Part shown: piece by piece, positions 7,776 through 50,531 of the stretch | Position numbering within the stretch: position 1 is the stretch's first letter | How the letters are laid out: each line of letters starts with the position of its first letter | Source of the DNA: Candidatus Saccharimonadota bacterium | Lineage (GTDB): Bacteria > Patescibacteriota > Saccharimonadia > CAILAD01 > BJGX01 | Length of the DNA stretch: 64,000 nucleotides | Reading direction: 5' to 3' | NCBI GenBank assembly: GCA_016191105.1 | Contig: JACPPH010000008.1 | Coordinates: forward strand, 2,667 to 66,666 | Translations under genes and position numbers: made by a program | Notes under the pieces: model-generated | The model's input: the letters and a program-made list of their open reading frames with translations, nothing else | What the model was told of the DNA's origin: nothing | Database searches by the model: none

Positions 7776-8153
7776 TTAAAAGAAGCTCAGCACAAAGTTG
7801 ACAATTACAAATGCCAAAAGCGCTACGACCAAGCCCACAACTGCGTAGATGATGGTATCTTTGGCACTGCGCAAGCCATTTTCGTCGCCCTGGCTCAATA
7901 CATACTTAAGCCCGCCAATTACAATCATAATCACGGCCGCCGCCCCAATAATTATAAGTAGAGTGTTGGTAACTGCAGCAATTCGGCCCGGCAGAGTGCC
8001 GCCGGGGGCACTCCCCTGAGCACAACTCGCCCCAGCAGATACGCCGCCAGCTATATCGCAGCTGGCTCCTGCATAGGTGATAGCGGGAAAAGCCAAAAGT
8101 GTCGCAAAGGCCATGAGGCCTGCGGCAATGCGGTTTGAGTTAATAAATTTCAC
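7776..8153 (-). CDS. VirB2/TrbC-like pilin-type small membrane protein, paralog 1 (alternative starts 8237 or 8114)
   Basis: Signal-peptide-like N-terminus. Two C-terminal hydrophobic helices separated by the GD(E)...AK loop motif shared with the four neighbouring paralogs (…NTLLIIIGAAAVIMIVIGGLKYVLSQGDENGLRSAKDTIIYAVVGLVVALLAFVIVNFV). Confidence 0.6.
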   Translation of the reverse strand: MKFINSNRIAAGLMAFATLLAFPAITYAGASCDIAGGVSAGASCAQGSAPGGTLPGRIAAVTNTLLIIIGAAAVIMIVIGGLKYVLSQGDENGLRSAKDTIIYAVVGLVVALLAFVIVNFVLSFF

Positions 8154-8172
8154 TTGAGTTGAGAGCTCCTTA

Positions 8173-8538
8173 TTACGAGAACTGCCCAAGCACGAAGTTA
8201 ACAATGGCATAGGCCAGCAAGGCCACCACAATACCAATTATCGAGAAGAGGATGGTATCTTTGGCGCCTTTGACTTGCTTTTCGTCGCCTTGACTAAAAA
8301 TGTAGCGAAAGCCACCCACAATAAGCATAATAACTGCCACCACACCAATTACTATCAAGAGGGTATTGGTAATCTGTGCAACCTGGGTGGTTAGCGGGAC
8401 GCTAGAAAGCGAACCTTGAGCCGAGTTAGCGCCCTGTGAGACATCGGGGTTGGCAGCATGCGCGGCTCCGGCAATTGCTACGCCCAAGCCCGCGCCTACG
8501 GTTGCAGTAGTGATTTTAATTCGCGATGAAAGTGACAT
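8173..8538 (-). CDS. VirB2/TrbC-like pilin-type small membrane protein, paralog 2
   Basis: Same architecture and motif. AAGGAG lies 10 nt before the chosen ATG. Confidence 0.65.
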   Translation of the reverse strand: MSLSSRIKITTATVGAGLGVAIAGAAHAANPDVSQGANSAQGSLSSVPLTTQVAQITNTLLIVIGVVAVIMLIVGGFRYIFSQGDEKQVKGAKDTILFSIIGIVVALLAYAIVNFVLGQFS

Positions 8539-8628
8539 ATGAGTGCTTCTCCTTATTAACATAACAATTATACATTGGTTATTGGTAATTATATCGCCGG
8601 CCGTAAAATAAGTAAAGACCGGGGGTGG

Positions 8629-8934
8629 CTACCTAAAAACACCAATTACAAAATTAACTATCAAGAACGATAGCAGGGCAATTACTAGCCCTACAACTGA
8701 ATAAATTATGGCCTCTTTGGCCTGGCGCAAGCGGTTTTCGTCGCCACCGCTGGTTACATAGGTAAAGCCACCATAAATTATGCCAATCACGGCAGCAGCA
8801 CCAACCAAGAAGAGCAGAGTGTTGGTAACGGTTGAGATTATGTCGCCAAAGCCTTTTTGCGGCAAAGCATTTGGCAATGATGGAGCTGCCGCTAGTATTT
8901 TTGTTGCTAGCTTAAACATATCTGTATTATACAT
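8629..8934 (-). CDS. VirB2/TrbC-like pilin-type small membrane protein, paralog 3
   Basis: 101 aa. Contains TLLFLVGAAAVIGIIYGGFTYVTSGGDENRLRQAKEAIIYSVVGLVIALLSFLIVNFV. Confidence 0.65.
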   Translation of the reverse strand: MYNTDMFKLATKILAAAPSLPNALPQKGFGDIISTVTNTLLFLVGAAAVIGIIYGGFTYVTSGGDENRLRQAKEAIIYSVVGLVIALLSFLIVNFVIGVFR

Positions 8935-8959
8935 TAAATATAGTTAGGCCAAAGCAGTC

Positions 8960-9247
8960 TTAAAAAAATTTACTAAAGATAAAGTTAAGAATACTACCAA
9001 CTGCCATAGCAGCAACAAGCCCGCCCACAGATGCCGCCAAAGCTCTTTTGGCAAAAAGCAAACGCCTTTCGTCGCCACCAGATGTTACATACATAAAGCC
9101 GGCGATTATTATAAAGATAACCGACACCACCCCAACAATAAAAAGCAATATAACTACCGCATTATTTAATAGGCCGGCCACAGCACCCTGCCAATTGCCA
9201 GCGTTGATTTGGTCTTGAATGGGTTGGGTGAAAAGAGTAAAGTTCAT
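8960..9247 (-). CDS. VirB2/TrbC-like pilin-type small membrane protein, paralog 4
   Basis: 95 aa with the same two-helix topology. Its ATG overlaps the upstream stop in an ATGA arrangement. Confidence 0.6.
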   Translation of the reverse strand: MNFTLFTQPIQDQINAGNWQGAVAGLLNNAVVILLFIVGVVSVIFIIIAGFMYVTSGGDERRLLFAKRALAASVGGLVAAMAVGSILNFIFSKFF

Positions 9248-9795
9248 GGGAATAGCCCTGTCAATTTAACAATTGCATAGGCGCTTATTAATAGCCCCAG
9301 ACTAATAGCTACCTGTATGAGGTGTTTTTTGGCATTTGCTATTTGATCGGGACTACCACCCGTAGCAATAATAGTGATTATATACCAAAGTATTAGCACA
9401 ACAGCTACGGCTCCAAAAATACCAACTAAATAGTCTGATATCTGATTAATCACATCGTAAAGACTGCCTTGGTTGCACAGCCAGCCCCTTGTAACTACAC
9501 TACAATCTTGGTTGGCATCGAGCTTACTACGGCCAAAAGTCTTCGAGTTAAGAGGCTCAATTTGCTGGCCTGCAAGACAAGTGACATTGCCAGTCTTTTG
9601 ATCAGTAATTGGTGCTCCTGCATCAGAACCATCGGCATTTACACACTTAAAAAGTTGTTGATTTTGATTAGTTGGCTCGGCACCTTGACCGGTCTGTGGC
9701 TCTGCCGCTAGTGCAACAGTCGTACTTGCTAGACTAAGGGCTAGGGCAATAAGCCCAAGTGCAATAAAAGGTATAGAATTTGTATATCTGCGCAT
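9244..9795 (-). CDS. Secreted Cys-containing protein with a pilin-like C-terminal two-helix module, paralog 5
   Basis: Signal peptide, a ~110-aa extracellular region with 4 Cys, then the shared TM-GGSPD-TM module. ATG taken at 9795; the ORF track starts at a TTG at 9804. Confidence 0.6.
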   Translation of the reverse strand: MRRYTNSIPFIALGLIALALSLASTTVALAAEPQTGQGAEPTNQNQQLFKCVNADGSDAGAPITDQKTGNVTCLAGQQIEPLNSKTFGRSKLDANQDCSVVTRGWLCNQGSLYDVINQISDYLVGIFGAVAVVLILWYIITIIATGGSPDQIANAKKHLIQVAISLGLLISAYAIVKLTGLFP

Positions 9796-9842
9796 TGTAA
9801 ACAAGCTTTATTTTACCCCTGTAATCATATATCATAAGGGCA

Positions 9843-12089
9843 ATGTTAGCAAAAACAAAGTTGTTAGCTCTTTGCTGCTTTGCTCTTGTGTTTGGGGCGG
9901 TACTTTTTTTTGTTACCAACGGCCAGAATGCGAGAGCTGAGCTTCCAAAAACTGGATCTTGCGGGCCCACCACTTTAAGCACTATTGGTGCCTGGAAAAC
10001 CCCTTTTAGTATAGACTGCGAAAATTCAAACCCATCACTTGGCGGTGGCGATGCCAAAGAAGACTGGTTCTACAATCCAGACTTAAGTAATGTTCTGGGT
10101 AACTACATAGTGTTTAGTCGCAAAGACACAGCCGCCGTAATGGTTATACAGGCCACAGGACCAAATGCCTACACTCGTTTTTGTTTTAAGTCTCCGGGTG
10201 ATGTTAAGGATGGTATGGCGTTTAACTACGACAACGGCGGTGGATTTTGTGGCGCTATAGAGAGTTTTGACCCCGCGGGTAGCGACAGCACCAATGCCGG
10301 TACGGGTTTTTGTTCAGTAGTAAACAACAAGGATGGTTGTGATTATTATAGCGGCAATGATGGGCCATGGTCTTCAAGTCCCCCCAGAAAATACAGTGGT
10401 AAGGTTGTGGATCGCTCAGCTGACATCTCCAAAGCCCAACAGAGCGAATCTGGAGATGAATGTAACAACCGAGATCAAGCCGGGGCTTTGAGTTTTGTAT
10501 TGTGTCCATTGCTCAAAAGTATCACTGAGTCGGTCGACAAAATAGTAGGGCCTGGTGGGCAACTGCAAAACTTGCTCAAAGTCGAACCACTAGCGTTTCC
10601 TGGCAGTAGTGGTGGCATTAATTTGCAAGCATCTACGCAGAATATAGTTTACCTGGCCGATGGTTTGTATGTGCTTTTGTTTATTGTACTGCTATTTGCC
10701 AATGCTTTTGCTATTGGCATAGACAACTACACCGTTAAAAAGACTTTGCCACGGCTGATTGCGGCAGTGGTATTAACTCAGTTTGCATATATAATTAGTG
10801 CACTTATGATTGACGCTGGCAACATACTTGGTTCTTTGTTGCCCAACTTAATATCGTCGGTTGGAGGAATTGATTTTACCACAGCTATTAATAATCTACT
10901 AGGCACCGGTAGCCAACCCAATCTAAACGGCTTACTGAGTTCGCTTGGAGCATTCTTCTTGGTGTTAGTAGCAGCAATTGCCATTTTGGTGGTACTGATA
11001 ATTGCCATGGTCTATATGATATTCCGAAATCTGTTTATTTATATACTAGTTATTGCCGCGCCCATAGCCTTTGCTGCCATGGTGCTGCCAGGCACTCAAA
11101 AGTACTTTAAGCTGTGGGGAGCCAACTTTATTAAGCTCATATTAATGTTTCCTATAATAACCTCTATACTGGCGGTGGCTTCGGTGCTTTCGGCTGCATT
11201 GGCGCCAATTAATTCCTTACTGGCCGCCCTAATTCCAGTGGTAGCCATAGCATTGATACCCAAAACCTTTAAGTGGAGTGGCGATATTATGGAATTCACA
11301 GCCGGTGCTGTGGCAGGCTATCTTGGAGGGAAGGCCAGCGCCGGCAGGAAGCAAGTGGGTGAGCAGTCCGATAGGCTAGCCGAATCTAGGCGTAACAAAA
11401 TTGCTACATCCAAATTTGGCGATACTCGGCTCGGGAGGTTTGCTTCTGGATCTGGATTTGGTAGTTTAGCAGGAACTCGCAAAAGCAAAGTAAAGCATGC
11501 TTCGAGAGTCGCTGCTGCCCAGTCTGAGGCCGATAAATATGCCAGCCTTTTGTATAGTCGGGAAAAAGCTAAACACCCAGTAGTCAAGGGCTCCAAAAAC
11601 TACGACAAACAAAAGGAGGCTCGGGAAAAAGCTTTGCTAGATCTTTATGATAATTCTAACAGGGCTACACAGTCTAGTTTATTGAGATTGGCCGGTAAAA
11701 GTGGCGACGACAAAGTGGTGTCTTACGCCAAAGGGAAAGATCCAAAATTTGTAGAAGGTGTAATGAACCAAAGCTGGTCGGACTTCGATGCTGTGCCGCA
11801 ACTCAGACCTGGTTTTGATGCCAAGGATCTTAACCCAGAAAAAATTGCAAACTCATCTGGTGGTTCCCAAAAATCAATTATTGAAAAGCATGGCAGCGAT
11901 CTATCAGCAGCAACATTGACAGGTTTGGTTTCGAACGACAGCATCCGAACCAAGCTTGATCCCGCTGTTATTGATTTGCTTAAAGATATTGCCGCTAACA
12001 CCAATACTACCGGAAAGGCGCCCACGAATATTGACCCTGCCGTTAGAACCAAAGTAAATGCTGCCTTAATGGATAAAAACTTACTGTAG
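9843..12089 (+). CDS. T4SS VirB6/TrbL-like polytopic membrane protein (PrgH/ConG-like), 748 aa
   Basis: Signal peptide, a Cys-rich extracellular N-domain, a central block of about 6 TM helices and a hydrophilic C-terminal domain. First gene of a plus-strand operon with translational coupling. Confidence 0.6.
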   Translation: MLAKTKLLALCCFALVFGAVLFFVTNGQNARAELPKTGSCGPTTLSTIGAWKTPFSIDCENSNPSLGGGDAKEDWFYNPDLSNVLGNYIVFSRKDTAAVMVIQATGPNAYTRFCFKSPGDVKDGMAFNYDNGGGFCGAIESFDPAGSDSTNAGTGFCSVVNNKDGCDYYSGNDGPWSSSPPRKYSGKVVDRSADISKAQQSESGDECNNRDQAGALSFVLCPLLKSITESVDKIVGPGGQLQNLLKVEPLAFPGSSGGINLQASTQNIVYLADGLYVLLFIVLLFANAFAIGIDNYTVKKTLPRLIAAVVLTQFAYIISALMIDAGNILGSLLPNLISSVGGIDFTTAINNLLGTGSQPNLNGLLSSLGAFFLVLVAAIAILVVLIIAMVYMIFRNLFIYILVIAAPIAFAAMVLPGTQKYFKLWGANFIKLILMFPIITSILAVASVLSAALAPINSLLAALIPVVAIALIPKTFKWSGDIMEFTAGAVAGYLGGKASAGRKQVGEQSDRLAESRRNKIATSKFGDTRLGRFASGSGFGSLAGTRKSKVKHASRVAAAQSEADKYASLLYSREKAKHPVVKGSKNYDKQKEAREKALLDLYDNSNRATQSSLLRLAGKSGDDKVVSYAKGKDPKFVEGVMNQSWSDFDAVPQLRPGFDAKDLNPEKIANSSGGSQKSIIEKHGSDLSAATLTGLVSNDSIRTKLDPAVIDLLKDIAANTNTTGKAPTNIDPAVRTKVNAALMDKNLL

Positions 12090-12095
12090 GTAAAA

Positions 12096-13103
12096 ATGGG
12101 ACAATACAAAGTACCACAAAACGTAGAGGCCGAAGATAAAATTCTTGGCCCGCTAACTATAAAGCAATTTATATATGTAATAATTGCGCTTATGTGGGGC
12201 TTTATTGCCATCCGTTTGTTGGCTCCATTCAACCTAATAGTAGGAATTATTTTGGCGCTACCAGTCTCTGGCACACTTTTGGCGCTTGGCCTCATTCAAC
12301 GCGAAGGTGTGAGCTTCGAAAACTACTTTTTGGCCTTTATTCGCTTTAATCTTTACCCGCGCAAACGCCAATGGCAAAAAGACGCCAACCCCGACGTGAT
12401 TAAGAACGAACCCAAAAAAGCCGTTGTGCCAGAACTACACAAAAGTCTTAACCAGGGCCAGCTAAAGCAATTGGCGTTTATTGTGGATACGCGTGGTAAC
12501 TACAAAGACCCCAACTTGCAGCTGCCCGACAGCAGCAATATAGCCACTCAAATGAGCTCGAGAGTGGTTGGCCCACAGGCCGCTCAGGGCGAAATTCCAA
12601 ATGTTCAGCCGCTTATGCCAAGCGCGCCCCAAGCAGCTGCTCAAGTATCGGCTCCGCAGGCTACACCAGCCCAAACGGCCCAAGCACAACCAGGCGTGGC
12701 ACCAATTGCGACTCAGCCTGCACCGCAGCCGCCGGCTGCCACCGCCCAAGACGATGTGCTAGACGAAACTAGCACTCAATCGACCGATGTTGGTACTTTG
12801 TTGCAAAACGTAGAGGTTAATTTGCGCAATCGCACGGTCGCTAAAATGAAACAATCGCTAACTGCGGCACCAAAAACCGCCAAGACTGCGCCCACCCTCA
12901 CTAGTGATAGAGCCAATGCTCAAGTTGCCGCCGCCACAGCAAGCCAAGCTACTGCTGGCGGCACCCTGTCTGGCAATCAAGTTGCCACCGCTTTGGCCAG
13001 ATTGAGCCAGCAAAGTGACCACCTATCGGTGCAGCGCTTGGCGGCTCAGGCCGACAAGGCCATTCCGCTTAGCGAAGGCCAAGTGGTACAAGTTAGAGGT
13101 TAG
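12096..13103 (+). CDS. PrgI/VirB3-like T4SS membrane protein with an Ala/Gln/Pro-rich C-terminal extension
   Basis: N-terminus YKVPQNVEAEDKILGPLTIKQFIYV followed by a TM hairpin and ...ENYFLAFIRFNLYPRKRQW, matching the PrgI family pattern. C-terminal low-complexity tail. Confidence 0.65.
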   Translation: MGQYKVPQNVEAEDKILGPLTIKQFIYVIIALMWGFIAIRLLAPFNLIVGIILALPVSGTLLALGLIQREGVSFENYFLAFIRFNLYPRKRQWQKDANPDVIKNEPKKAVVPELHKSLNQGQLKQLAFIVDTRGNYKDPNLQLPDSSNIATQMSSRVVGPQAAQGEIPNVQPLMPSAPQAAAQVSAPQATPAQTAQAQPGVAPIATQPAPQPPAATAQDDVLDETSTQSTDVGTLLQNVEVNLRNRTVAKMKQSLTAAPKTAKTAPTLTSDRANAQVAAATASQATAGGTLSGNQVATALARLSQQSDHLSVQRLAAQADKAIPLSEGQVVQVRG

Positions 13104-13189
13104 AGCAAATTTTGGCTCGGTTTAAACAAAAACACAAGCTTTATCTCAACTCGAGATTTTGATATCATAATAGATTAGCATTTAAGACT

Positions 13190-14074
13190 ATGGCAAAGAA
13201 TAATCAGCCCCAATTAACCCCCGCCCAAACCGAATACTTTGGTTCGATTACCCCACCCAAAAAAACCAAAAACCAGCGTCAGAGCACCCAGTCGCATTTG
13301 CAGTTTTCGGAGATCAAAGACGGCATAGTAGTAATGCGCGACGGTAGTTTACGCATGGTGGTTATGTGTAGCCCCACTAACTTCGACCTCAAAAGTCCGG
13401 CCGAACGCGATGCCATTGAGTATGCTTATCAGGGCTTTCTAAATGGTTTGCACTTTCCAATTCAAATTGTTATTCAGTCGCGCAAAGTTGATCTCGACAA
13501 CTATCTCGAGAACCTCGAGAACTTGCAGTCTAACCAGCCAAACGGGCTGCTGGCTGGACTTATGGACGACTACATATTCAATATTCGGGCTCTGCTCGAA
13601 GAGGTAAATATTATGGACAAAAAGTTCTATGTGGTTGTGCCATACTATACCCAGGTAGTAAGCAAAGAAAACGTCTTTACTGGCATTAAAAAACTGATTG
13701 CTGGTGAGCAACAGGTTACCCAAACCAGCAAACAATATGATCAGCGCCGGCGCGACCTTATACAGCGTACCAACCTGGTGGCCGGTGGCCTAGCCCAAAT
13801 CGGGATTCGTTCAGTCGTTTTGAACACCCAAGAAATTATTGAGCTGTATTACAACTCCTACAACATCGACGAAGCTCAAAACCAAGCCTTGGGCAGTGTG
13901 GATCAGGTAAATACCCCGGTCGTAATGCGCGAAGGCGGCTTAGCTGAGCCACACGGCAACGAACAACCAGAACCCGAGCCCGAAGACTTGTTTGCCGCCG
14001 AGCAACGGCGAGCCCAGTCTGGTTCGTACGGCAGCCAATCGGCTCACCAAGCCAAGAGCGGAGAGCGCAGGTGA
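13190..14074 (+). CDS. T4SS-associated protein with a VirB4 N-terminal-like region
   Basis: EIKDGIVVMRDGSLRMVVMCSPTNFDLKSPAERDAIEYAYQGFLNGLHFPIQIVIQSRKVDL resembles the extreme N-terminal region of VirB4/TrbE/PrgJ ATPases. Its stop overlaps the VirB4 start codon (ATGA). Confidence 0.5.
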   Translation: MAKNNQPQLTPAQTEYFGSITPPKKTKNQRQSTQSHLQFSEIKDGIVVMRDGSLRMVVMCSPTNFDLKSPAERDAIEYAYQGFLNGLHFPIQIVIQSRKVDLDNYLENLENLQSNQPNGLLAGLMDDYIFNIRALLEEVNIMDKKFYVVVPYYTQVVSKENVFTGIKKLIAGEQQVTQTSKQYDQRRRDLIQRTNLVAGGLAQIGIRSVVLNTQEIIELYYNSYNIDEAQNQALGSVDQVNTPVVMREGGLAEPHGNEQPEPEPEDLFAAEQRRAQSGSYGSQSAHQAKSGERR

Positions 14075-15963
14075 TGGCCAGAAAACCCAAGGTTGACCCG
14101 GCGGTTCAGGCTCAAATTGATCGCCAAACGGCCATGCAGTCTGAAGCTCAAAAAATCTATCGCGAGGGTGTCGTTACTCTGCGCGATATGATTGCGCCAA
14201 GTTCTTTTGAGGTCGAGAGCAGCTACATAAAAATTGGCAAGCGCTATGCCCGCACTCTGTTTATATACGCTTACCCACGTTCGTTATTCACGGGCTGGCT
14301 AAGCCCAATTATTAATCTCGATGAAGTAATTGACATATCAATGTCAATCGAGCCGGTAGAATCAAGGGTGGTACTAGATAATTTGCGCAAGAAAGTTACC
14401 CAAATGGAGGCCACCTATAGCATAAACCAGGAGAAGGGTAAGGTGCGCGACCCCGGGCTAGAGGCTGCCCTACAAGATGCCGAAGAATTGCGCGACAAGC
14501 TGCAGGTGGGCGAAGACCGGTTCTTTCGCCTAGGCTTATATATAACTATTTACGGCAAAGACCTAAAAGAGCTTAATGAAGTTGGCCGGCGCATTGAAAG
14601 CGTGTTTGGTACAGCACTAATTTACACCAAACCCACCACCATTCAGATGGAACAAGGCTTTACCACTACTTTGCCGATGGGCCAAGATCAAATTCAGGTA
14701 CGCCGCAACATGGATACGGGTGCTATTAGCACCAGTTTTCCATTTACCACCGCCAACCTAAGTAACGACGAGGGTATATTGTATGGCATTAACCGCCACA
14801 ACAATGGCTTGGTGTTGTTTGATCGCTTCTCTCTAGAAAATGCCAATATGGTGGTGTTTGCCAAGTCGGGTGCTGGTAAGAGTTTTGCGGTTAAGCTGGA
14901 GTGCTTGCGTTCACTCATGCTGGGGTCCGAAGTAATTGTGATCGACCCCGAAAATGAATACAGGACCTTGTGTGATGCCGTGGGCGGTAGCTTCTTGCAC
15001 CTAAGCCTGGCCAGCTCTACGCGCATTAATCCATTTGATATCCCCACCACAATTGATAGTGAAGAGGCCGATAATGCCCTGCGAGCCAATATAATTATGT
15101 TGCATGGGCTGTTGCGACTAATGACCGGCGAGATGAGCCCAGCCGAAGAAGCCGATCTCGACGTGGCACTGATCAATACCTATGCTCAAAAGGGCATAAC
15201 TAACGACCCCCTAACCCATAAGGCTGAGCCGCCAATTATGCAAGATCTGTATAACACCCTTAATCAGATGGGCGGTAACGGACCTGCCCTGGCGGCTCGC
15301 CTGCGGCGTTACACCGAGGGTACTTTCTCGGGTATTTTTAGTCAGCAGAGCAATGTTGACCTAAGCTCTAACTTCGTGGTGTTTAATATTCGCGATCTCG
15401 AGGACGAGCTCCGACCAATCGGCATGTATATTACATTGAACTATATTTGGAACCGCGTAAAAACCGAGAGGAAGAAGCGCATTTTGGTAGTCGACGAAGC
15501 CTGGCAGCTCATGCAATATCAAGACTCGGCTATGTTTCTATTTAGCATTGCCAAGCGAGCGCGCAAGTATTACTTGGGCTTAACCACCATCTCGCAAGAT
15601 GTTGAAGACTTCTTGAGCACTCGGCTTGGTCGGGCAATTGTGAATAACTCAAGCTTACAGTTACTGCTTAAGCAAAACCCGGCTGCGGTTGATATTGTTA
15701 GCCAGACCTTTAAGCTAACCAGCGAAGAAGCCAAGCTGTTGAGCCAATTTCCGGTTGGCGAGGGCTTATTCTTTGCTGGCTTGAGCCACATTATTTTGCG
15801 AATTCTGGCCTTCCCGGGCGAGGAGCAGCTGATTACCACCAACCCAAAGGATATTTTGGATAGCTTGGAGCAAGCCAAGGCTCAGGTTCAGGGCGCATCG
15901 GCGGGCGCCCAAGCTGCAGAGGCTCAAAATCTGGCACAGCAAAATGCAACTGGAGCAGAATAA
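14071..15963 (+). CDS. virB4: Type IV secretion ATPase VirB4 (TrbE/CagE/PrgJ family)
   Basis: Conserved IAPSSFEVESSYIKIGKRYARTLFIYAYPRSLFTGWLSPIINLD region. Walker A is FAKSGAGKSF and Walker B is ILVVDEAWQL. Confidence 0.9.
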   Translation: MMARKPKVDPAVQAQIDRQTAMQSEAQKIYREGVVTLRDMIAPSSFEVESSYIKIGKRYARTLFIYAYPRSLFTGWLSPIINLDEVIDISMSIEPVESRVVLDNLRKKVTQMEATYSINQEKGKVRDPGLEAALQDAEELRDKLQVGEDRFFRLGLYITIYGKDLKELNEVGRRIESVFGTALIYTKPTTIQMEQGFTTTLPMGQDQIQVRRNMDTGAISTSFPFTTANLSNDEGILYGINRHNNGLVLFDRFSLENANMVVFAKSGAGKSFAVKLECLRSLMLGSEVIVIDPENEYRTLCDAVGGSFLHLSLASSTRINPFDIPTTIDSEEADNALRANIIMLHGLLRLMTGEMSPAEEADLDVALINTYAQKGITNDPLTHKAEPPIMQDLYNTLNQMGGNGPALAARLRRYTEGTFSGIFSQQSNVDLSSNFVVFNIRDLEDELRPIGMYITLNYIWNRVKTERKKRILVVDEAWQLMQYQDSAMFLFSIAKRARKYYLGLTTISQDVEDFLSTRLGRAIVNNSSLQLLLKQNPAAVDIVSQTFKLTSEEAKLLSQFPVGEGLFFAGLSHIILRILAFPGEEQLITTNPKDILDSLEQAKAQVQGASAGAQAAEAQNLAQQNATGAE

Positions 15964-15990: not shown

Positions 15991-18900
15991 ATGGCTCAGG
16001 GTACAATTACGCCACCAGACGACAATATTGATGACAACTTAATACACGACAAGAATCTCAGCAATTCTGAGTGGTCAGATTTTGTTGACAACCACTCCAC
16101 TTCCGATGGCTCTATCCGTGCTACTGGTCGGGAGGATGCTGCCGACCTACCAACTAGCAATCGTAGCCGGGGACCAGCAGTAGATGAATCAGGGCATATT
16201 ACCGCCGCTGATAATGTCGGCCAAAACAGACAGCAAGGTGGTGGTAGCAGTATGGACATGGCAAAAAAAGTCGCCAAACAAGCCGCCGGTGCAGGTGGTG
16301 GTGGCAGCTCTGCCGCAACCAAAGCCCTGGGCGCCGCAAGCAGCGGTAAGGATGGTGATAAGCCCGAGACTGCAAAAGACAAGGCTGCCGATAAAGCAGC
16401 CGACGCTGCCCAGATAGCCGAAGCAGCAGCCACCATTGAGAGCCCAACTGCCTGGCTAACTCTGGCTAAGCAGGCTAAAAAGCACTGGAGAGCCCTGGCG
16501 CTGGTAAGCATAATTGCACTCTTGCCAGTGTTTATATTGATATTCATTGTATTCTATGCCGCCGCTAACCCGTTTGAGTTCATGAAGGCGGCTATTACCA
16601 ATAAGGCCTTAGGGCGATTTGTAGTCCAGTCAGCCGATGCAATAGGCCTGCCAGGCGCAGCTCAAGTAAGAACCGTACTGGAAAGAGCCGGCTTAGTTAT
16701 AAAGATAGAGCACAGTAATACCGCAATAGCAGCACCCAGCCCCACAACCAAGCCAGACCCCGGCAGCATAGATGACATTCTGGCCCGCATAGACTGGAAA
16801 AAAGCACAATGGCAGTATGGAAACGATATTACCTGTAAATACCGTTTTACATTTGCGCCATTTGTAAATTACGATGGTCAAACTATTAACGAAATCGACA
16901 AGGCTTACGACAAAACGACCGGCAAAGAAGTGCCGCCAGACCAGGCTACAGAAGCTGTAAACACTTGTTTTATGAACAGCTACCCAATGTTTAATATGTC
17001 AACCCGTAACCCCGCAGCAAGAAGTGTTAATAAGTTTTCAGATGCCTTTCTGGCCTACTCAACCGACAAAAGTGAGCTCTATAACAAACCACAATCTGAG
17101 GTAAATAAGGCTCTGCTCGAAAAAACCGTTAAACGGATCGAGGAAAAGCAAGACTCGGCTCCCAAGAGTACCGAACAAAAAGTAACAGACTTCTCCAACA
17201 GAGTATATTCTGAGATTCAGCAGGGCAAAGACCCCGAGGCGCTAGATTATGACGCAATTGCGGCCAGTGTTGGATTGACGTTCCCAAACAACGATCAAGA
17301 CCCCCAGCAAGTTACTGATTCTATGTGTACTTATTATCAAGTATTCACTGCCGAGAATAATGTAGTGAAAGGTATATATAGCCGCCGCGATGCGGCAGTT
17401 CGTAACGCCTTAAAGTTTTTGTCGCTAGCTGGTTCTGGTGCCATGTACCAAAACAGCAACAAAGAGATCAATTATACTGCTGCATCTATAGCCAATTGGG
17501 CAGACGGCGCGGGCTATAGCTTATCGGTAGGCAACGGCAACCAGGGCATTCAAGCCAATGCTGAGTCTATCCACAATAGAGCCTACATTATCAAGCCAGA
17601 AGAAGCTATCCGAATCGGATTGGCGCTAAGACCAGCCTGTGCCTATGCCAACTTTGGCTTTCCGGTACCGATTATACAACAAGTTATAAAAAACGTGGGT
17701 CAAACAGCCGTGTTTAATTTGTACAAAACTTTTAGGGCTACTGTTGTGGCTGAGTCTAGCGGGATCTTTGAGATAGGTAACCCAAACAACTTTGGTTTAA
17801 AAGACATACTGATTGGCAGTTTTAGGCTGGCCGGCGCAGCCTCGGTTACAGGTACAGAGGCAGGTCCACAAAATCTTAACCGACAAGCCATGGGCGTGCA
17901 ACAACTTACCTCAGATTACCTGCGTACGGTTGGTGGTCGGTTCTTGACCGAACAAGAACAGGCCGAGCTCGCTGTTAGAGTAGAAGACAATGCACGACAA
18001 AACGAACAAAATAAAAGCTTTTTGGCCAGAATATTCGACACTGCTAGCCCGCGTTCAATTGCAAGCCAGCTGGCCAGCCGAAACACCAGCTGGCGTGATA
18101 CTGCTACTTACATGGCCTCAACAACTGCATCGCTGGTAAATATACCTAAACTTTTTACAGACACATCTAGCCTGGTGGCTTATGTGGCCACAGGCCAAAA
18201 AAATACAGCTTTTGCAGCCAGCGATGATATTGCCAATTACTTCAAGGTAGACCTAGCTGGATTCAGCAGTAATGAACTAAAAAGTACCAATCTTCTAGAC
18301 AATGCCCGCGCAATTGAAAAGCTAAAAAAAGATATTAGCGACCCTAATGACATTCGCACTAAACAAATGCAATATTATGACGCATGCTTTAAGAAAGATA
18401 TTCCAAACCCTATTCTCTTTACCCGTATTCCTGAAGACCCCAAGGATATTAGCAACACCGATCCTGCCATTCAAAAGAAATATCTTTACATAAAAGACGG
18501 TTTTAAAATAGGCGGGGACGGCAATCAGCTTACTTACAATCAAGATGTGGATTCGGACTTTTTTAAGGCCTATACTTGTGAGACTACGATGACCAACAGC
18601 AACCCGCTAAACATGCCAAATATAAATCTAGATTTTGCGAGAAAATATCGTTTGTATGTTTACTACAAATCACAAGTGGAGTTGCTACAAAATTTATCCA
18701 GCGATACAGCCCCGAAAGGGTTTTATGCAGGCTCTAGCAAGGGCGGTGCGGGCAGCGGGCAGCGTAATCCCGGCGGCTTTATTTGGCCTATAGGAGGAAA
18801 GACAGTATTTAGCAGATGTGGCAATGGTCATGGTTACCAAGCTGTAGATATTGCTTATGTTGGCAATCTCAAGCCAGACATATACGCGGTAGCCGATGGC

Positions 18901-19203
18901 GAAGTGGTGCTGGCCGATAACAGCAACAGCAGCTCTGGCTATGGTAACTACCTGATCATTAAGCAGAATGACGGCCTATACACCCTCTACGCCCACAATA
19001 GCGAGGTTACGGTAGCCAAAGGAGACCGTGTGAGCCAAGGTGACGTGGTGGCTATTGGTGGCTCGAGTGGCGATTCGAGCGGCCCCCACCTACACTTCGA
19101 AGTCCGTACCGAAGACATAAATGGCCCCAAGCAAAACCCGGGTGACTACTTGCCAGATACACCAGACGGGCAAAATACTCAAACTTACTGCGAGAGTAAT
19201 TAA
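15991..19203 (+). CDS. Large membrane-anchored cell-wall hydrolase with a C-terminal M23 (LytM) peptidase domain (VirB1/PrgK-like role)
   Basis: One TM segment near residue 175. The C-terminus carries M23 motifs (HGYQAVDIAY...YGNYLIIKQNDGLYTLYAHN...GPHLHFEV). Confidence 0.75.
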   Translation: MAQGTITPPDDNIDDNLIHDKNLSNSEWSDFVDNHSTSDGSIRATGREDAADLPTSNRSRGPAVDESGHITAADNVGQNRQQGGGSSMDMAKKVAKQAAGAGGGGSSAATKALGAASSGKDGDKPETAKDKAADKAADAAQIAEAAATIESPTAWLTLAKQAKKHWRALALVSIIALLPVFILIFIVFYAAANPFEFMKAAITNKALGRFVVQSADAIGLPGAAQVRTVLERAGLVIKIEHSNTAIAAPSPTTKPDPGSIDDILARIDWKKAQWQYGNDITCKYRFTFAPFVNYDGQTINEIDKAYDKTTGKEVPPDQATEAVNTCFMNSYPMFNMSTRNPAARSVNKFSDAFLAYSTDKSELYNKPQSEVNKALLEKTVKRIEEKQDSAPKSTEQKVTDFSNRVYSEIQQGKDPEALDYDAIAASVGLTFPNNDQDPQQVTDSMCTYYQVFTAENNVVKGIYSRRDAAVRNALKFLSLAGSGAMYQNSNKEINYTAASIANWADGAGYSLSVGNGNQGIQANAESIHNRAYIIKPEEAIRIGLALRPACAYANFGFPVPIIQQVIKNVGQTAVFNLYKTFRATVVAESSGIFEIGNPNNFGLKDILIGSFRLAGAASVTGTEAGPQNLNRQAMGVQQLTSDYLRTVGGRFLTEQEQAELAVRVEDNARQNEQNKSFLARIFDTASPRSIASQLASRNTSWRDTATYMASTTASLVNIPKLFTDTSSLVAYVATGQKNTAFAASDDIANYFKVDLAGFSSNELKSTNLLDNARAIEKLKKDISDPNDIRTKQMQYYDACFKKDIPNPILFTRIPEDPKDISNTDPAIQKKYLYIKDGFKIGGDGNQLTYNQDVDSDFFKAYTCETTMTNSNPLNMPNINLDFARKYRLYVYYKSQVELLQNLSSDTAPKGFYAGSSKGGAGSGQRNPGGFIWPIGGKTVFSRCGNGHGYQAVDIAYVGNLKPDIYAVADGEVVLADNSNSSSGYGNYLIIKQNDGLYTLYAHNSEVTVAKGDRVSQGDVVAIGGSSGDSSGPHLHFEVRTEDINGPKQNPGDYLPDTPDGQNTQTYCESN

Positions 19204-20198
19204 TGAACAGGCGGATTACCATTACTATCATAAGCATTGTTGCGGTGCTAGCTCTAGCTGTCATAATAGTTATGCTTATATTAGTAACCCGGCAGCCTAG
19301 CACATTCAGCCTCAATGCTCAGATTGCCGACAGTGGTCGCATCCGCTTCGCTCAAGCTACCGCAAAAGGGCTGGTTTATACTAAATCCAACAACCTGTAT
19401 CTTATTAAAGACGGCACGCCTAGCTTGCTTGGCGCCCTGCCGGAATTTGATAGCTTTCAGGTTAATCAAGATGCAACTTTTGGAGCTGTCAAAAACAATT
19501 CCACTGTTCTAATTTACAACCTGTCCTCCTGGAAAGTTGTAGCTCAGTTTGAAGCTAAGTTCTTCAGCTGGATTGACAGCAATACATACCTGTATGGCAC
19601 TTTTGTTACGCCACCAAAAATTGCTGGTGGTGCCGAAAATTTATCTCAAAATCTTACTGTTAAAGATACCTCGGGTAGGCTTATAAATACCTATACTACA
19701 CCATTCTCGCCGATTGGCTTGCTACTAAGTAGCCCCACCAGCCTATATATATCAGCCAGCGGAAGTAAAGGCCTGCTTGAACTACAAATTTACAGGCTCG
19801 ACAGAACAAACGGCAGCCTGCAGACGATTCAACAGTTGCCAAATTTTAGTTTTAACCAATATAATCAATATGAGGCGGCACTATTACAAACTGGATCCAA
19901 TAGCGGTCCTGTGCAGCCATTCTCAACTAACGGCCTAAAAATCACCTCGCTGTTTCAGCCCTTATCTAACGTAGTTATGGTTAGCAAAGCCAGGCTTCTG
20001 TATGTAACTAGTAGAAATAACGTTGAGCTCCATAGTTTTGACCTAACCAACAATAAAGATCAGCTAATAGGCTATATTTCGATACCTGCTAGCACTGTAG
20101 TAAGTGGGGTGTATGTGATAAATAGTAGAATGTACATTACAGCTCAAAATCAAATCTTCTTCATCGGTTTAGACCCAATAAAGGGCTTGACACAATGA
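19203..20198 (+). CDS. Bitopic membrane protein (N-terminal TM plus a beta-rich periplasmic domain), T4SS operon member
   Basis: MNRRITITIISIVAVLALAVIIVMLILV is the N-terminal TM anchor. Confidence 0.5.
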   Translation: MNRRITITIISIVAVLALAVIIVMLILVTRQPSTFSLNAQIADSGRIRFAQATAKGLVYTKSNNLYLIKDGTPSLLGALPEFDSFQVNQDATFGAVKNNSTVLIYNLSSWKVVAQFEAKFFSWIDSNTYLYGTFVTPPKIAGGAENLSQNLTVKDTSGRLINTYTTPFSPIGLLLSSPTSLYISASGSKGLLELQIYRLDRTNGSLQTIQQLPNFSFNQYNQYEAALLQTGSNSGPVQPFSTNGLKITSLFQPLSNVVMVSKARLLYVTSRNNVELHSFDLTNNKDQLIGYISIPASTVVSGVYVINSRMYITAQNQIFFIGLDPIKGLTQ

Positions 20199-20310
20199 AC
20201 TATAGAGCGGCTGCCGTAGTAGATGATGCTCCGAGGGTAATTGAGGTGGGTTGCGCAAAGCCTGTTGCGCTTTGCGCAGCTACTCTTTTATCCATCCAGA
20301 GGCTCTTGCA

Positions 20311-22725
20311 ATGAGTCTGTTGCAAGCTGTTAGCCCTAAATTCATTAGGCCTATAGTTATGTTGGTTACTATATTATTTGTTTTAGTTTCTCCACTCCAG
20401 GCCGTTGCCGCCGCATCGCCCTCCTGGCGATACGAAGCCGAAAGAGCTAACTGGTGGGACAAAACCGACCTGCCGTGCGGCAAAACCTCAATTAATACGT
20501 CGGGCAGTTCTACGCTACCGGCAGACTTCCCTGAGCCAGCCCGAACAATCCTAACTAATGCCGCCAATACCGCCGGCACCAATGCTAACGTATTAGCCGC
20601 TATCTACATGAACGAACATGGTATAAACGAGTATCGCACCATACCCACCGACCGCAACGCCCTAAACGGCGGCGCGGTAAGCAGTGCGGGGGCGACCGGA
20701 CCGTTCCAAGTTCTCCCCGAACTGTGGAAGAGGGAATGGGGTGATATTAACAATTTCGAGGATGCTGCCAAAGCCGCCGCCCAAAATTGGCTCAAAAACG
20801 CCGCTAAAATAGGCCCTACGCCAGAGATCGGCGACCCCAACAACCCTAAAGAAGGTACGGTTGTCTTTGCATTTAAGACCTATAATCCTGGAAGTCAAAG
20901 TTATATAGAGGCCGGCCTTAAACGCTACCAGTCTTTGGGTGGCAGCACAAACAACGGGCAAACTTCTGGCCCCGCTGCTTTTTTAAACACCAAAGACCAG
21001 TTTAAGCCAGTTGCCCGAGCCGCTAGTGATGCTGGCAAGGTATTCTTTGTAGGCGACTCTATAGGTAGCGCCATTAAAGACAAGCTAAAAGAACAATACC
21101 CCAACATTGAATTTGACACCCTGCCCGGCCGTGGCTTAACTGGTGGGCCTGCTCAGTTTCAGCCCAATGGCATAGATGTGCTTAAGGCTAGTACCGACAA
21201 AATTAAGAACGCCGACACCGTGGTATTAGAGCTTGGCACAAACGCTTACGACGCCGCAAACTTTTCGGCCGATGTCGACAATGCTATTAACATAATCAAA
21301 CAGGCTAAAGACAGCGTGAAAATATACTGGATCGATTTGGCCGCCAATAGTCCGCAGTTTCAAAAGATAAACACCGAGGTCTATGGGCCTATGAATAAGA
21401 CCCTAATTGATAAGTCTAATTCTGGGAATTTTAAGCTAATATCGTGGTTTAAAACTGTGTACCCCGAAGGAGACCCAAGCCAGCCAGCACCTACTCTGGC
21501 CGATTCTAATAAACTGTTCAAAGCCGGCGACAATGTTCACCCGTCCAATCCAGATGGGGTCAATGCCTACGCTAGCCTGGTGGCCAATAACCTCAAAAGT
21601 GGTGGTGGCACCAACAATACCGTCAGCGCGTCGAACAATTGCCCGGCAGCTAATAGTGGTGGCTCGGGTAACTGCATAGACGATGGGGCAATTATGAAGG
21701 TGAATGATGCCACCAAGCTGGGTGAGGCAATTAATAAATACATAGAGCAAAACGGAGGAAAAGATGCACCCTTAAAAACCCTGGGCGCAAAGTTTGTAAG
21801 TGGTGCTATACGGCAAGGCGTGAATCCGTTTCTGATTGTTTCGATCGCGCAAAGAGAATCAAGCTTCGGTAAGGCAGTGCCAGGCAACAATAGTGAGTCG
21901 TACAACTCATTTGGGCTAACCGCCGCAAGCGGACAACCCTCAGTGTCAACCAACGGTAGAAACTGGTATAAATGGCCTAGCTGGGAACTTAGCCTAGATG
22001 GCGGTGGTAGCGAGTTTGATGAGCCCACTTATCTGAAAAAAAATTACCTAGATAAGGGCTTAACAAAGGTTGACCAAATTATGATGAAATATGCACCCCC
22101 AAGTGATGGCAATGATACGGCTGGTTACATCCAGGGCATTAAAGATGGCAACAAGAAAATGGTTGACTTGGCCGGCGATGCCATTAGTTGTGATGGCGGC
22201 GGCCAAGCCGTGCGATCGCTCAAAAATGCTACTGTGGTTAAATCTTTTGACGGCCCGCCTATTAATGTAAGCTCGATCGTAGTTCACTATACCGCTGGCC
22301 AATCTGCAGATGGTGCTAGTTTTGTTAATGCGATTAAGTCCAATAAAAGCTGCGGGCCTCAAGGCTGCTCGGTTCAGGTGTGGATTTCAGACCAAGGCCA
22401 GGTTTATCAGTTGGTAGACCCACTCAACACCTTTACTGAAAATGTTAATGACTTTAACAAGCACTCCATAGGCATAGAGATCGACGGCGCAGATGAAAAC
22501 GAGGTTATGAATAATAGTGTTCAGTTTGGAGCCGTAATCACGACAATCAAAGACTTGATGGAGATATTTAACATTAAGAATGAAATGGTTTGTGCCGAGC
22601 CCAACAGTAAGGGTATATTTGGTCATATGGAAGCCAACGATTGCATGAATCCGGTTCCGGGGCAAGGCCATCGCGACCCAGGAGCAAATTATATGGCAAA
22701 AATTAGACAGGCCTTAGGACAATGA
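20311..22725 (+). CDS. Multidomain peptidoglycan hydrolase (lysozyme-like + SGNH/GDSL hydrolase + SLT-like + Amidase_2/PGRP domains); ORF begins at 20251
   Basis: GDSIGS block of SGNH hydrolases. IAQRESSFG lytic-transglycosylase-like motif. C-terminal IVVHYTAG...SIGIEI Amidase_2 signature. Signal or TM N-terminus. AGAGG RBS before the ATG at 20311. Confidence 0.7.
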   Translation: MSLLQAVSPKFIRPIVMLVTILFVLVSPLQAVAAASPSWRYEAERANWWDKTDLPCGKTSINTSGSSTLPADFPEPARTILTNAANTAGTNANVLAAIYMNEHGINEYRTIPTDRNALNGGAVSSAGATGPFQVLPELWKREWGDINNFEDAAKAAAQNWLKNAAKIGPTPEIGDPNNPKEGTVVFAFKTYNPGSQSYIEAGLKRYQSLGGSTNNGQTSGPAAFLNTKDQFKPVARAASDAGKVFFVGDSIGSAIKDKLKEQYPNIEFDTLPGRGLTGGPAQFQPNGIDVLKASTDKIKNADTVVLELGTNAYDAANFSADVDNAINIIKQAKDSVKIYWIDLAANSPQFQKINTEVYGPMNKTLIDKSNSGNFKLISWFKTVYPEGDPSQPAPTLADSNKLFKAGDNVHPSNPDGVNAYASLVANNLKSGGGTNNTVSASNNCPAANSGGSGNCIDDGAIMKVNDATKLGEAINKYIEQNGGKDAPLKTLGAKFVSGAIRQGVNPFLIVSIAQRESSFGKAVPGNNSESYNSFGLTAASGQPSVSTNGRNWYKWPSWELSLDGGGSEFDEPTYLKKNYLDKGLTKVDQIMMKYAPPSDGNDTAGYIQGIKDGNKKMVDLAGDAISCDGGGQAVRSLKNATVVKSFDGPPINVSSIVVHYTAGQSADGASFVNAIKSNKSCGPQGCSVQVWISDQGQVYQLVDPLNTFTENVNDFNKHSIGIEIDGADENEVMNNSVQFGAVITTIKDLMEIFNIKNEMVCAEPNSKGIFGHMEANDCMNPVPGQGHRDPGANYMAKIRQALGQ

Positions 22726-23744
22726 GATCCAGACGCTTATTATTGCTAGTATTGGCGGCTCTAGTTATATTTATTGCTTTGGTAGCGTTAATCATAACGA
22801 TGCTAAGTAGGCCGTCAGTCAAAACAACCCAGCTGTTTGATACTGGTTCTTACTACCACATGGTAACCAACAACGGTGTGGTTACTTTTATCGACAACAA
22901 CAGTAATATCCAACGCTACAATGAAAGCTTGGCCAAAAAAGAGTTTATTGGCAGCGTAGCTATTGAGTACAAGCCGAAGCTGGCTGAAACAGGAGAATAC
23001 ATAGCCACCACAAAACCCAGCGGCCAAGCCTCCACTACCATAAGTAGACTGGATGTCTACAACGGCAATAGCTTGGATGGAAAAACAATCGTACCTTACA
23101 ACTATGTTAAGTGGGGGTTTGGCAACCAGCTACTTGGACTTTTGCCGCCCAACCGAGCTAGCCAGGGAGAAGGAGGGCCTTTCGAATCAACCATATATAG
23201 CGGCCAGCTCAACATAATAAATGCGGCTCAGCCAGGCCAAGCCTTAACTGCTTCGGATAGCAATATCCGGTTCGAAACAATTGCCTATGCCAACCAAGAC
23301 AAGCTAATAACTACCTCTACACAGACAGATGGCAGCATTACCCTAACCACCCTTGACGCCCGTAGCTGGCAACCTCTCGGGCAACAACGCCTGCCAAGTT
23401 TGGTTGAATATTACCAGGCAAAGCAGTTTTTCTTGTACCGCGAAAACAATAACTCCAACTTAGTGGTTTCTATGAACGCCGGCCAGCAGTTTACCACCAA
23501 GCTTCAAACTTCACCGTTTCTGGCTTACCCATTAGGAGGTAAGAGGCTAGCCGCTATAATAAAAAACAACGACCAAGCAAAATTAGTAGTATATAATTAC
23601 GAAGCCAACAAAACCACCAAGGAGATGGTATTGCCAGATTATGTATTCAAACCCAACCAGCTTGTTACTACAGATAAAAATGTATATATTTCTACAAAAG
23701 GTGGAATTTATATGGTAGAAAACTTTTTGGACGGCTTAAAATGA
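22722..23744 (+). CDS. Bitopic membrane protein (beta-propeller-like extracytoplasmic domain), T4SS operon member
   Basis: N-terminal TM MRSRRLLLLVLAALVIFIALVALIITML. Start overlaps the upstream stop (ATGA). Confidence 0.5.
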   Translation: MRSRRLLLLVLAALVIFIALVALIITMLSRPSVKTTQLFDTGSYYHMVTNNGVVTFIDNNSNIQRYNESLAKKEFIGSVAIEYKPKLAETGEYIATTKPSGQASTTISRLDVYNGNSLDGKTIVPYNYVKWGFGNQLLGLLPPNRASQGEGGPFESTIYSGQLNIINAAQPGQALTASDSNIRFETIAYANQDKLITTSTQTDGSITLTTLDARSWQPLGQQRLPSLVEYYQAKQFFLYRENNNSNLVVSMNAGQQFTTKLQTSPFLAYPLGGKRLAAIIKNNDQAKLVVYNYEANKTTKEMVLPDYVFKPNQLVTTDKNVYISTKGGIYMVENFLDGLK

Positions 23745-24355
23745 GAAGGTGGCTGATTGTGCTGGGCATACTGCTAACTATAGCTGTGGCGGGCGGGGCT
23801 TTGGCAGTTTATAGCTTTAACCGATCTGGCAAGTTTCGGGTGGTTGGCGGCTCTCCAAGCAACAAAAGCACCAATGTGCCGCCAGAGAACACGATTACAC
23901 TTGTGTTCTCTCAAGACCTCGACACCAACCAAGCCCAAACCTTTTTACAAACATCGCCCAGCCAGCTATTTGTAATGGAGTTGCAAAAAAATAAGTTAGT
24001 GCTAACACCGGCCAAGCCTTTGCAAGAAAAATCTCAATATTTGATTTCAATAAACAATATACGATCGACTCAGGGCCAGCAGACCAGCACTAGTATTTTA
24101 TTTACAACTGGAGTTAATAATTCGCCAAGAGCACAATTTATTAGGCTTTTACCATTCAGTGGCAGTGACTTTAATATATTCTATAACGAAAATTTAGACG
24201 GGTTCACGGTTCAAATATCGACCAAGTCGATGGACCAAGCCAAAGCCCAGGCTCTGCAGTACTTTCGAGACAACAATGTAGACCCTAACAAGCAAAGAAT
24301 TGATTTTCAGCAGCTGAGATACCTGCAGGGCAAAGGTGCTCCACCGCCCAACTAA
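23741..24355 (+). CDS. Bitopic membrane protein with an Ig-like (SbsA/Big-type) domain
   Basis: N-terminal TM, then VVGGSPSNKSTNVPPENTITLVFSQDLD, typical of the start of a bacterial Ig-like domain. ATGA coupling with the upstream gene. Confidence 0.45.
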   Translation: MRRWLIVLGILLTIAVAGGALAVYSFNRSGKFRVVGGSPSNKSTNVPPENTITLVFSQDLDTNQAQTFLQTSPSQLFVMELQKNKLVLTPAKPLQEKSQYLISINNIRSTQGQQTSTSILFTTGVNNSPRAQFIRLLPFSGSDFNIFYNENLDGFTVQISTKSMDQAKAQALQYFRDNNVDPNKQRIDFQQLRYLQGKGAPPPN

Positions 24356-35087: not shown

Positions 35088-35167
35088 GGCCCCGTCTTGC
35101 CTCGATAAGCTTGCACAAGTTCCTAACATATTATGTACCTTTTTGCTATCTGGCACAAGCTAAGAAA

Positions 35168-38979: not shown

Positions 38980-39930
<951 letters not shown>

Positions 39931-39933
39931 GCT

Positions 39934-44459: not shown

Positions 44460-44465
44460 TTTTGT

Positions 44466-45284: not shown

Positions 45285-45285
45285 A

Positions 45286-48405: not shown

Positions 48406-48407
48406 CG

Positions 48408-50521: not shown

Positions 50522-50531
50522 TGGGTGAGCT

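Follow-up and report, generated by a model that had tools for sequence, protein, structure and literature searches.

The type IV secretion operon and its two hydrolase genes

In the 64,000-nucleotide (nt) stretch of contig JACPPH010000008.1 analysed here (positions 2,667 to 66,666 of the forward strand; GenBank assembly GCA_016191105.1, Candidatus Saccharimonadota bacterium), hereafter the window, two large open reading frames (ORFs), A and B, encode proteins with peptidoglycan hydrolase domains and lie inside the operon of a type IV secretion system (T4SS), where the original prediction had placed them (Table 1). The operon is single, compact and entirely on the plus strand, with the order VirB6, PrgI, split VirB4, A, X1, B, X2 and Big_5, and the gene junctions from VirB6 through Big_5 are tight or overlapping. 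The T4SS context is confirmed by the genes immediately 5' of A, which encode a TrbL/VirB6-like protein, PrgI and a VirB4 divided over two ORFs that overlap each other by 4 nt. Each hydrolase gene is coupled to an X gene of its own, A to X1 and B to X2. Since recF, dnaN and dnaA adjoin on the opposite strand, the locus is chromosomal and proximal to the origin.

Table 1. Features of the T4SS operon and its surroundings in window coordinates (TM, transmembrane; aa, amino acids)
Feature	Position	Strand	Remarks
ORF A, 1070 aa	15991..19203	+	NCBI name 'M23 family metallopeptidase'
A, single TM helix, about aa 168-192	16492..16566	+	Kyte-Doolittle scan
A, scaffold, aa 195-930	16573..18780	+	family specific to the slot directly 3' of virB4
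A, Peptidase_M23 domain, aa 951-1044	18841..19122	+	Pfam
X1, 331 aa	19203..20198	+	N-terminal TM helix; start overlaps the A stop
ORF B, 804 aa from ATG 20311 (824 aa from TTG 20251)	20311..22725	+	Sec-exported, four modules
B, predicted Sec signal peptide, MSLLQAVSPKFIRPIVMLVTILFVLVSPLQAVA/A	20311..20409	+	sequence reading
B module 1, SLT/MltB-like lytic transglycosylase or muramidase, aa ~55-235	20413..20955	+	
B module 2, SGNH hydrolase, OatA-C/PatB branch, aa ~258-452	21022..21606	+	
B module 3, GH73-like N-acetylglucosaminidase fold, aa ~474-648	21670..22194	+	
B module 4, Amidase_2 (N-acetylmuramoyl-L-alanine amidase)	22264..22683	+	
X2, 340 aa	22722..23744	+	N-terminal TM helix; start overlaps the B stop by 4 nt
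Upstream T4SS core, whole block	9843..15963	+	
VirB6/TrbL-like	9843-12089	+	upstream T4SS core
PrgI/VirB3-like	12096-13103	+	upstream T4SS core
VirB4 N-terminal ORF	13190-14074	+	upstream T4SS core
VirB4 ATPase	14071-15963	+	upstream T4SS core
Big_5 (bacterial Ig-like) exported protein	23741..24355	+	final operon gene; Pfam
recF, dnaN, dnaA	24644..28482	-	follow the operon

Modules and active sites of the two proteins

Protein A is composed of a cytoplasmic low-complexity N-terminus (aa 1-165), one TM helix, an extracytoplasmic scaffold of ~740 aa and a C-terminal M23 domain, a layout that predicts an N-in/C-out bitopic membrane anchor. Its only Pfam match is Peptidase_M23 (PF01551, aa 951-1044; E 1.3e-24, 86.6 bits against a cut-off of 28.7), and the score, like that of Amidase_2 in B, is far beyond chance. 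The core of an AlphaFold2 (AF2) model of the last 165 residues was confident, with a predicted local distance difference test (pLDDT) of 76-96, and the model matched LytM, lysostaphin and EnvC at E 1e-8, and also DipM, in Foldseek. The domain had been expected to be a canonical M23 endopeptidase; the assignment to M23 stands, but the active site departs from the canonical one. Aligned with orthologues and with M23 enzymes of solved structure, A has Tyr949 (GHGYQAVD; codon TAC) in the histidine column of the HxxxD motif, while D953 is present and both the HxH pair (H1033-L-H1035) and the catalytic H1002 are invariant. Another histidine, H947, is found two residues N-terminal of Tyr949 and might perhaps replace the missing zinc ligand; the loop bearing both residues is of low confidence in the model. 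The canonical histidine of HxxxD is present in the A orthologues P0008/L001 and P0161, and those of L002 and L083 have another non-canonical loop, with the histidine displaced. The nearest M23 relatives of A in the PDB and PHROG are phage virion or tail proteins, the likeness being limited to the M23 domain.

The scaffold of A has no relative in Pfam, NCBIfam or the PDB, and a scaffold profile of 46 sequences likewise retrieved no meaningful relative from the PDB. Word-indexed homologue searches gave 5 + 3 relatives for A and 6 for B, and because the homologues of A were so few, no deep alignment of the scaffold could be obtained; with A as the query against the genome contigs, two loci only were found.

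The residues of B are numbered from TTG 20251, the start of the mechanical ORF call (20251-22725). ATG 20311 is preferred as the actual start, because it is the start called by NCBI, agrees with the N-termini of homologues and has AGAGG 8 nt upstream. No lipobox cysteine was seen in the signal peptide and no targeting domain was recognised in B. Since phmmer with B found no match among the PDB sequences, domain-level profiles were needed; an exhaustive profile search with B yielded 1358 relatives, in which the four modules are shuffled independently. Amidase_2 is the sole module of B above its Pfam threshold.

The window segment of module 1 has no Pfam match by itself, and 10 of 16 relatives match SLT_2/SLT; the profile of the module matches MltB/SltB structures at 2e-6 to 8e-5. 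E122 is invariant, as are G150, F152 and Q153 of the stretch G150-P-F-Q153, with P151 almost invariant; Y211-N-P-G is present. This family homology, with a catalytic glutamate ahead of a G-x-x-Q motif, places the module with the SLT/MltB-type (GH23/GH103) enzymes, so that the lysozyme-like segment around GPFQV proposed earlier is a transglycosylase-type module; the sequence does not discriminate between transglycosylase and muramidase chemistry.

Module 2 scores under the curated Pfam thresholds (Lipase_GDSL_2, 16.6 vs 32.9 bits; Lipase_GDSL, 15.6 vs 23.6), and Lipase_GDSL_2 is matched by 16 of 19 relatives. The SGNH/GDSL assignment holds, as blocks I, III and V are all found and are invariant in 19 sequences (G268-D-S270, G329-T-N331 and H430 within D427-x-x-H430). 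Among the solved structures, the profile retrieves the C-terminal domain of OatA (6wn9) at 2.6e-11 and PatB (8tlb) at 2e-7, and independent support for the OatA-type fold is given by the corresponding part of the structural model, which matches 6vjp with a target TM-score of 0.82 in Foldseek.

For the segment of module 3 containing IAQRESSFG, an SLT-like identity had been suggested and is rejected in favour of GH73: PF01832 is matched by 15 of 18 relatives (20.8 bits against a threshold of 30.2 for the module's own sequence), and the profile matches LytB, AtlA, AtlE and FlgJ. E536 in QRESSFG, corresponding to the (A/S)xxES motif, and Y614 in KYAPP, corresponding to the YA motif, are invariant.

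Module 4, predicted as Amidase_2/PGRP, was recovered as such (PF01510 at aa 672-811; E 5e-15, 56.4 bits vs a cut-off of 26), and its profile matches the amidase structures 6srt (5e-12), XlyA, AmpD and AmiD. All 14 family members have H679, E743, H792 and D809; by motif analogy, the two histidines and D809 would be the zinc ligands and E743 the conserved glutamate. Catalytic residues are therefore conserved in the transglycosylase, SGNH, GH73 and Amidase_2 modules, and neither their loss nor a non-hydrolase fold, which the original prediction had named as contrary evidence, was encountered in B; in A, the first zinc-binding histidine of the M23 domain is lost.

Related loci and the exchange of modules

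A VirB4-based scan gave 80 metagenome loci, and in almost all of them that are sufficiently long the order is VirB6, PrgI, VirB4-N, VirB4, an ORF of 860-1290 aa (slot A), an ORF of 375-840 aa (slot B), small ORFs and recF. Three closer relatives of the window, the loci L001, L002 and L083/L084, share the order A, X1, B, X2, Big_5 and recF, and the succession of VirB4, a ~1000-aa protein, a hydrolase, Ig-like proteins and recF is common to them and the ~80 metagenome loci. The split of VirB4 is kept in essentially all ~80 related loci (L003-L082 and the window). In L001 (6476-9243), L002 (6504-9298) and L083 (2827-5615), the closest relatives of the window, the two VirB4 genes form a module that runs against the direction of the remaining operon; in the window itself (13190-15963) and in most metagenome loci they are not inverted. 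Inverted repeats flanking the module were looked for, and none was convincing.

The occupants of the two slots were assessed with Pfam in 46 slot-A and 39 slot-B proteins. Slot A was found to carry Peptidase_M23 (8 of 46), VanY (6), NlpC/P60 (3), Exo_endo_phos (2) and Peptidase_M74 (1), the remainder having no Pfam match. The Exo_endo_phos domain, a nuclease/phosphatase, stands in for the peptidase in its two slot-A proteins, and about half of the 46 are without a recognisable catalytic domain. Slot B carries Phage_lysozyme2 in 27 of 39 proteins, Glucosaminidase in 7, Peptidase_M23 in 6, Peptidase_C39_2 and CHAP in 5 each, Amidase_3 in 3, Amidase_2, Lipase_GDSL_2, Peptidase_C70 and NlpC/P60 in 2 each, and VanY and SLT_2 in a single one each. 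Slot B is thus a multi-hydrolase that recombines freely. An iterative profile built from the A scaffold alone recruited 40 of 66 slot-A ORFs and 0 slot-B ORFs; its remaining recruits were orthologues or paralogues of A, the reversed decoys gave 0, and within the window only A was found. This specificity argues that slot A holds one conserved family of scaffolds whose C-terminal enzyme is exchangeable. Both slots are conserved across the ~80 loci while their catalytic modules are swapped, and the swapping reaches close relatives: the VirB4 of the window and that of L001 are 85% identical, yet the C-terminus of B is Amidase_2 in the window and M15-like in L001. The members P0013 and P0014 of the B family end in Peptidase_M15_4/VanY-type domains.

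Damaged motifs were found in 5 of 17 M23 domains in these loci. In L010 aspartate replaces the histidine and HIE the HxH motif, in L017 HxH reads YLY, and L065 has asparagine. A second scaffold + M23 paralogue lies several genes downstream of the first in L017 (18390-21326), where the YLY motif occurs, in L045 (17795-20764) and in L071 (9917-12874).

X1 and X2 are distant paralogues of each other (hhalign probability 96%, E 1e-9) and were detected only in the clade of the window (L001, L002, L083/L084). Neither matched Pfam, NCBIfam or PHROG, and X2 had no match in the PDB. Their role could be that of a partner, adaptor or protection factor for the hydrolases to which they are coupled.

A mobile conjugative element was rejected as the setting, since every complete locus adjoins dnaA-dnaN-recF and the scanned ORFs, including the window ORFs examined, yielded neither a relaxase nor a coupling protein. 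On the other side of the operon, five small tandem ORFs (7776-9804, minus strand) run divergently to the VirB6 operon; with their similar hydrophobic C-terminal halves they resemble the array of VirB2-like pilins that has been reported in S. epibionticum. Outside the T4SS operon, the window encodes a cell-wall-associated protein of 597 aa with VanW and PG_binding_4 (33363-35156, minus strand) and a 713-aa ORF without a Pfam match at E <= 1e-4 (36814-38955). A block of low guanine-cytosine content (~39900-55100; 38-41% vs ~47% elsewhere) holds a polysaccharide-type cluster with a Wzt-like ATP-binding cassette ATPase, GT4 glycosyltransferases, a glycosyltransferase-methyltransferase fusion and a Wzy_C/O-antigen-ligase-like protein.

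Proposed function and known systems

Both genes belong to a T4SS operon, lie near virB4 and encode hydrolase domains predicted outside the membrane, which are the defining features of the VirB1/PrgK/CwlT-type class. A and B are probably dedicated wall-opening components of the chromosomal Saccharibacteria T4SS and most likely correspond in function to VirB1, PrgK, CwlT and TraG of monoderm conjugation systems. The role of wall-openers is suggested by the operon order, by the domains and catalytic residues, by the confinement of the scaffold family to the slot after virB4, by the signal peptide of B and by the N-terminal TM anchor of A, which PrgK-type hydrolases typically have, and by the essentiality of the syntenic genes in S. 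epibionticum. A would be held in the epibiont membrane by its one TM helix, its scaffold presenting the M23 endopeptidase-fold domain outside the cell, and B would be exported via Sec. Modules 1 and 3 of B would attack the glycan strands and module 4 the amide bonds between N-acetylmuramic acid (MurNAc) and L-Ala of the stem peptides, while the SGNH module would clear those MurNAc O-acetyl groups that otherwise block glycan cleavage. The local opening of peptidoglycan would let the T4SS channel or a VirB2-like pilus through the wall of the epibiont itself, and the host wall at the contact site might be opened too. Since 6-O-acetylation blocks lytic transglycosylases and lysozymes, and since no acetyl-donor partner is encoded in the operon, module 2 is most probably an O-acetyl-peptidoglycan esterase, Ape-like in function and not in closest sequence.

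Several observations weigh against this assignment. Modules 1-3 of B remain below the Pfam thresholds in their own sequence, and their identity derives from family profiles. When B was modelled by AF2 at full length, the result was poor (pLDDT 50, from a 6-sequence alignment) and usable in its SGNH part alone. The nearest solved relatives of module 2 are the O-acetyltransferases OatA-C and PatB and not the Ape1 esterase; the Ape1-type entry 4k3u scores E 0.42 against the module 2 profile. With Tyr949 in place of the first zinc-binding histidine, A may be inactive or regulatory. Finally, the essentiality in S. epibionticum concerns syntenic genes with different catalytic modules.

The two proteins could instead act outside, on the wall of the Actinobacteria host, in the manner of phage tail lysins, opening a path for the pilus, effectors or nutrient uptake, with modules swapped to fit the chemistry of the host peptidoglycan and with the SGNH module stripping host O-acetylation. 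The rapid swapping of modules, seen even between the window and L001, and the phage-tail-lysin-type domains at both slots hint at host-wall attack, which is plausible; the range of peptidases at slot A (M23, VanY, NlpC/P60, M74), the predominance of Phage_lysozyme2 at slot B beside GH73, M23, CHAP, C39_2 and Amidase_2/3, the phage virion and tail proteins closest to the M23 domain of A, and the need for the T4SS in the epibiotic growth of S. epibionticum are all consistent with it, and the long scaffold of A could bridge the epibiont's own wall. However, the present results fit cutting of either wall, module shuffling is common in bacterial autolysins generally, and B is a Sec substrate with no recognised targeting domain. 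A search for papers on Saccharibacteria and peptidoglycan O-acetylation returned none, so that the link is missing from the literature searched. The original prediction had favoured attack on a partner wall, arguing that so many activities exceed what a local channel through the cell's own wall would need. That argument fails, because multi-domain hydrolases are routine in monoderm T4SSs, including conjugative ones, as the LytM + SLT + CHAP of PrgK (PMC11323569), the SLT + CHAP of TraG-type proteins (PMC12102498) and the three modules of SEML1_0006 illustrate. Action on the host wall is considered possible, if on the doubtful side. A more elaborate version, in which the slots after virB4 form an outward-acting entry kit for the host wall, with a membrane-anchored scaffold A bearing an exchangeable peptidase, B modules matched to the host peptidoglycan, including an esterase that disarms its O-acetylation, and X1/X2 as dedicated partners or self-protection, appears rather unlikely.

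About as tentative as action on the host wall is the view that A has, in its M23 domain, a LytM-type domain that is regulatory or non-catalytic, like those of PrgK, EnvC, NlpD or ActS, and that would position or control B or its amidase without cutting cross-links itself. It would agree with Tyr949, with the displaced histidine in L002 and L083 and the worse degeneration in L010, L017 and L065, with the Foldseek matches to EnvC and DipM, with top NCBIfam matches to NlpD and the amidase activator ActS, all of them far below the cut-off, and with the PrgK precedent, in which a degenerate LytM domain down-regulates the active one (PMC11323569). A retains four of the five catalytic residues, however (D953, H1002, H1033 and H1035), H947 in the flexible loop might bind zinc, the loop geometry is of low confidence in the model, and HxxxD is canonical in the orthologues P0008/L001 and P0161. 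Moreover, the known LytM activators act on Amidase_3 and not on Amidase_2 enzymes.

That the SGNH module is an O-acetyltransferase like OatA-C or PatB, modifying peptidoglycan and not deacetylating it, is improbable: its best profile and structural matches are to exactly these enzymes, but no AT3/MBOAT acetyl-donor partner is fused, adjacent or encoded elsewhere in the operon, the module is set between glycan-cleaving domains, and donor-less SGNH transferases behave as esterases. It is very unlikely that A and B are housekeeping autolysins of growth and division that lie near the T4SS genes at the origin by chance, for although the locus is chromosomal, beside dnaA-dnaN-recF and without a relaxase or coupling protein among the ORFs examined, and although the few hydrolases of a reduced genome might do double duty, both slots are tied to virB4 in ~80 loci by overlapping or tight junctions, the scaffold family is confined to the slot after virB4, and this slot matches the place of prgK after prgJ in pCF10-type operons.

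With A and B thus read as wall-opening components of the T4SS, the closest known system is that of S. epibionticum ML1, which has a likewise arranged pilin array, VirB6, PrgI, a split VirB4 (SEML1_0009/0008), a ~1100-aa protein with a C-terminal peptidase, a multi-module lysozyme-type protein, Ig-like proteins and recF-dnaN-dnaA on the origin side. There SEML1_0007, of 1113 aa, ends in a Hedgehog/DD-peptidase fold (Wang et al. 2023, PMC10633639), and SEML1_0006 joins two lysozyme-like domains and a cysteine protease, recognised by Pfam as GH73 and phage tail lysozyme (PMC10633639). Both genes sit between virB4 (SEML1_0008) and recF (PMC10633639), were scored essential for epibiotic growth by transposon sequencing (PMC10633639 Tables S1/S2) and have been named probable VirB1 substitutes (PMC12102498). 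Epibiotic growth requires the T4SS in S. epibionticum, where neither a relaxase nor a coupling protein was recognised. The differences lie in the modules: M23 in A as against the Hedgehog/DD-peptidase (M15B) fold of SEML1_0007, and transglycosylase, SGNH, GH73 and Amidase_2 in B as against GH73, phage-tail lysozyme and cysteine protease in SEML1_0006; the clade of the window, unlike S. epibionticum, has X1 and X2 inserted. The scaffold of A may nevertheless be homologous to its S. epibionticum counterpart, as VanY-bearing slot-A proteins were recruited by the scaffold profile. No T4SS before that of Saccharibacteria had been shown to be indispensable for the survival of its owner, and among its parts the wall-cutting proteins are the most likely to touch the host. 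Fixed slots whose modules are exchanged between close relatives, together with an SGNH module of the O-acetyl-peptidoglycan type gained by one lineage, make the question of own wall or host wall testable.

PrgK of E. faecalis pCF10 resembles A and B in being T4SS-encoded, in having several extracellular modules and in its LytM/M23 domain with a degenerate site; it is also membrane-anchored, and prgK directly follows prgJ (virB4) in pCF10-type operons, in the manner of slot A. Of its LytM, SLT and CHAP domains, SLT alone was active in vitro, as a muramidase; the degenerate LytM site contains no metal, and PrgK binds PrgL (PMC11323569). Its modules are, however, in one protein and here divided over A and B, and PrgK lacks both the ~740-aa scaffold of unknown fold and the SGNH, GH73 and Amidase_2 modules. 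The VirB1-like two-domain hydrolases TraG of pIP501 and CwlT of ICEBs1 also combine a glycan-cleaving domain with a peptidase and are required for monoderm conjugation (PMC12102498); the peptidase is CHAP or NlpC/P60 there and M23 or Amidase_2 in A and B, the proteins are much smaller, and their systems serve DNA transfer from plasmids or integrative and conjugative elements, whereas no relaxase or coupling protein is among the window ORFs examined.

OatA-C and PatB share with module 2 the Ser, Asn and His blocks besides giving its best sequence and fold matches, but they are acetyltransferases that receive their acetyl groups from a donor domain or partner in the membrane, of which the operon of B contains none. 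Phage tail and virion lysins (Gp16, 9m7n; the internal protein of cyanophage A4, 9k2v) have a long non-catalytic N-terminus and a terminal M23 domain, like A, which in contrast to them is a chromosomal membrane protein within a T4SS operon. The paired T4SS hydrolases, the multi-module proteins and the degenerate M23 domain each have a precedent, and the pairing is already known in Saccharibacteria, the four-module B with an OatA/PatB-type SGNH domain being a variant of it with an unusual combination of modules. In the literature searched, neither the scaffold-plus-cassette organisation of slot A nor the bracketing of B by X1 and X2 is described; as a whole, the finding adds an expected component to a described system and no new type of system.

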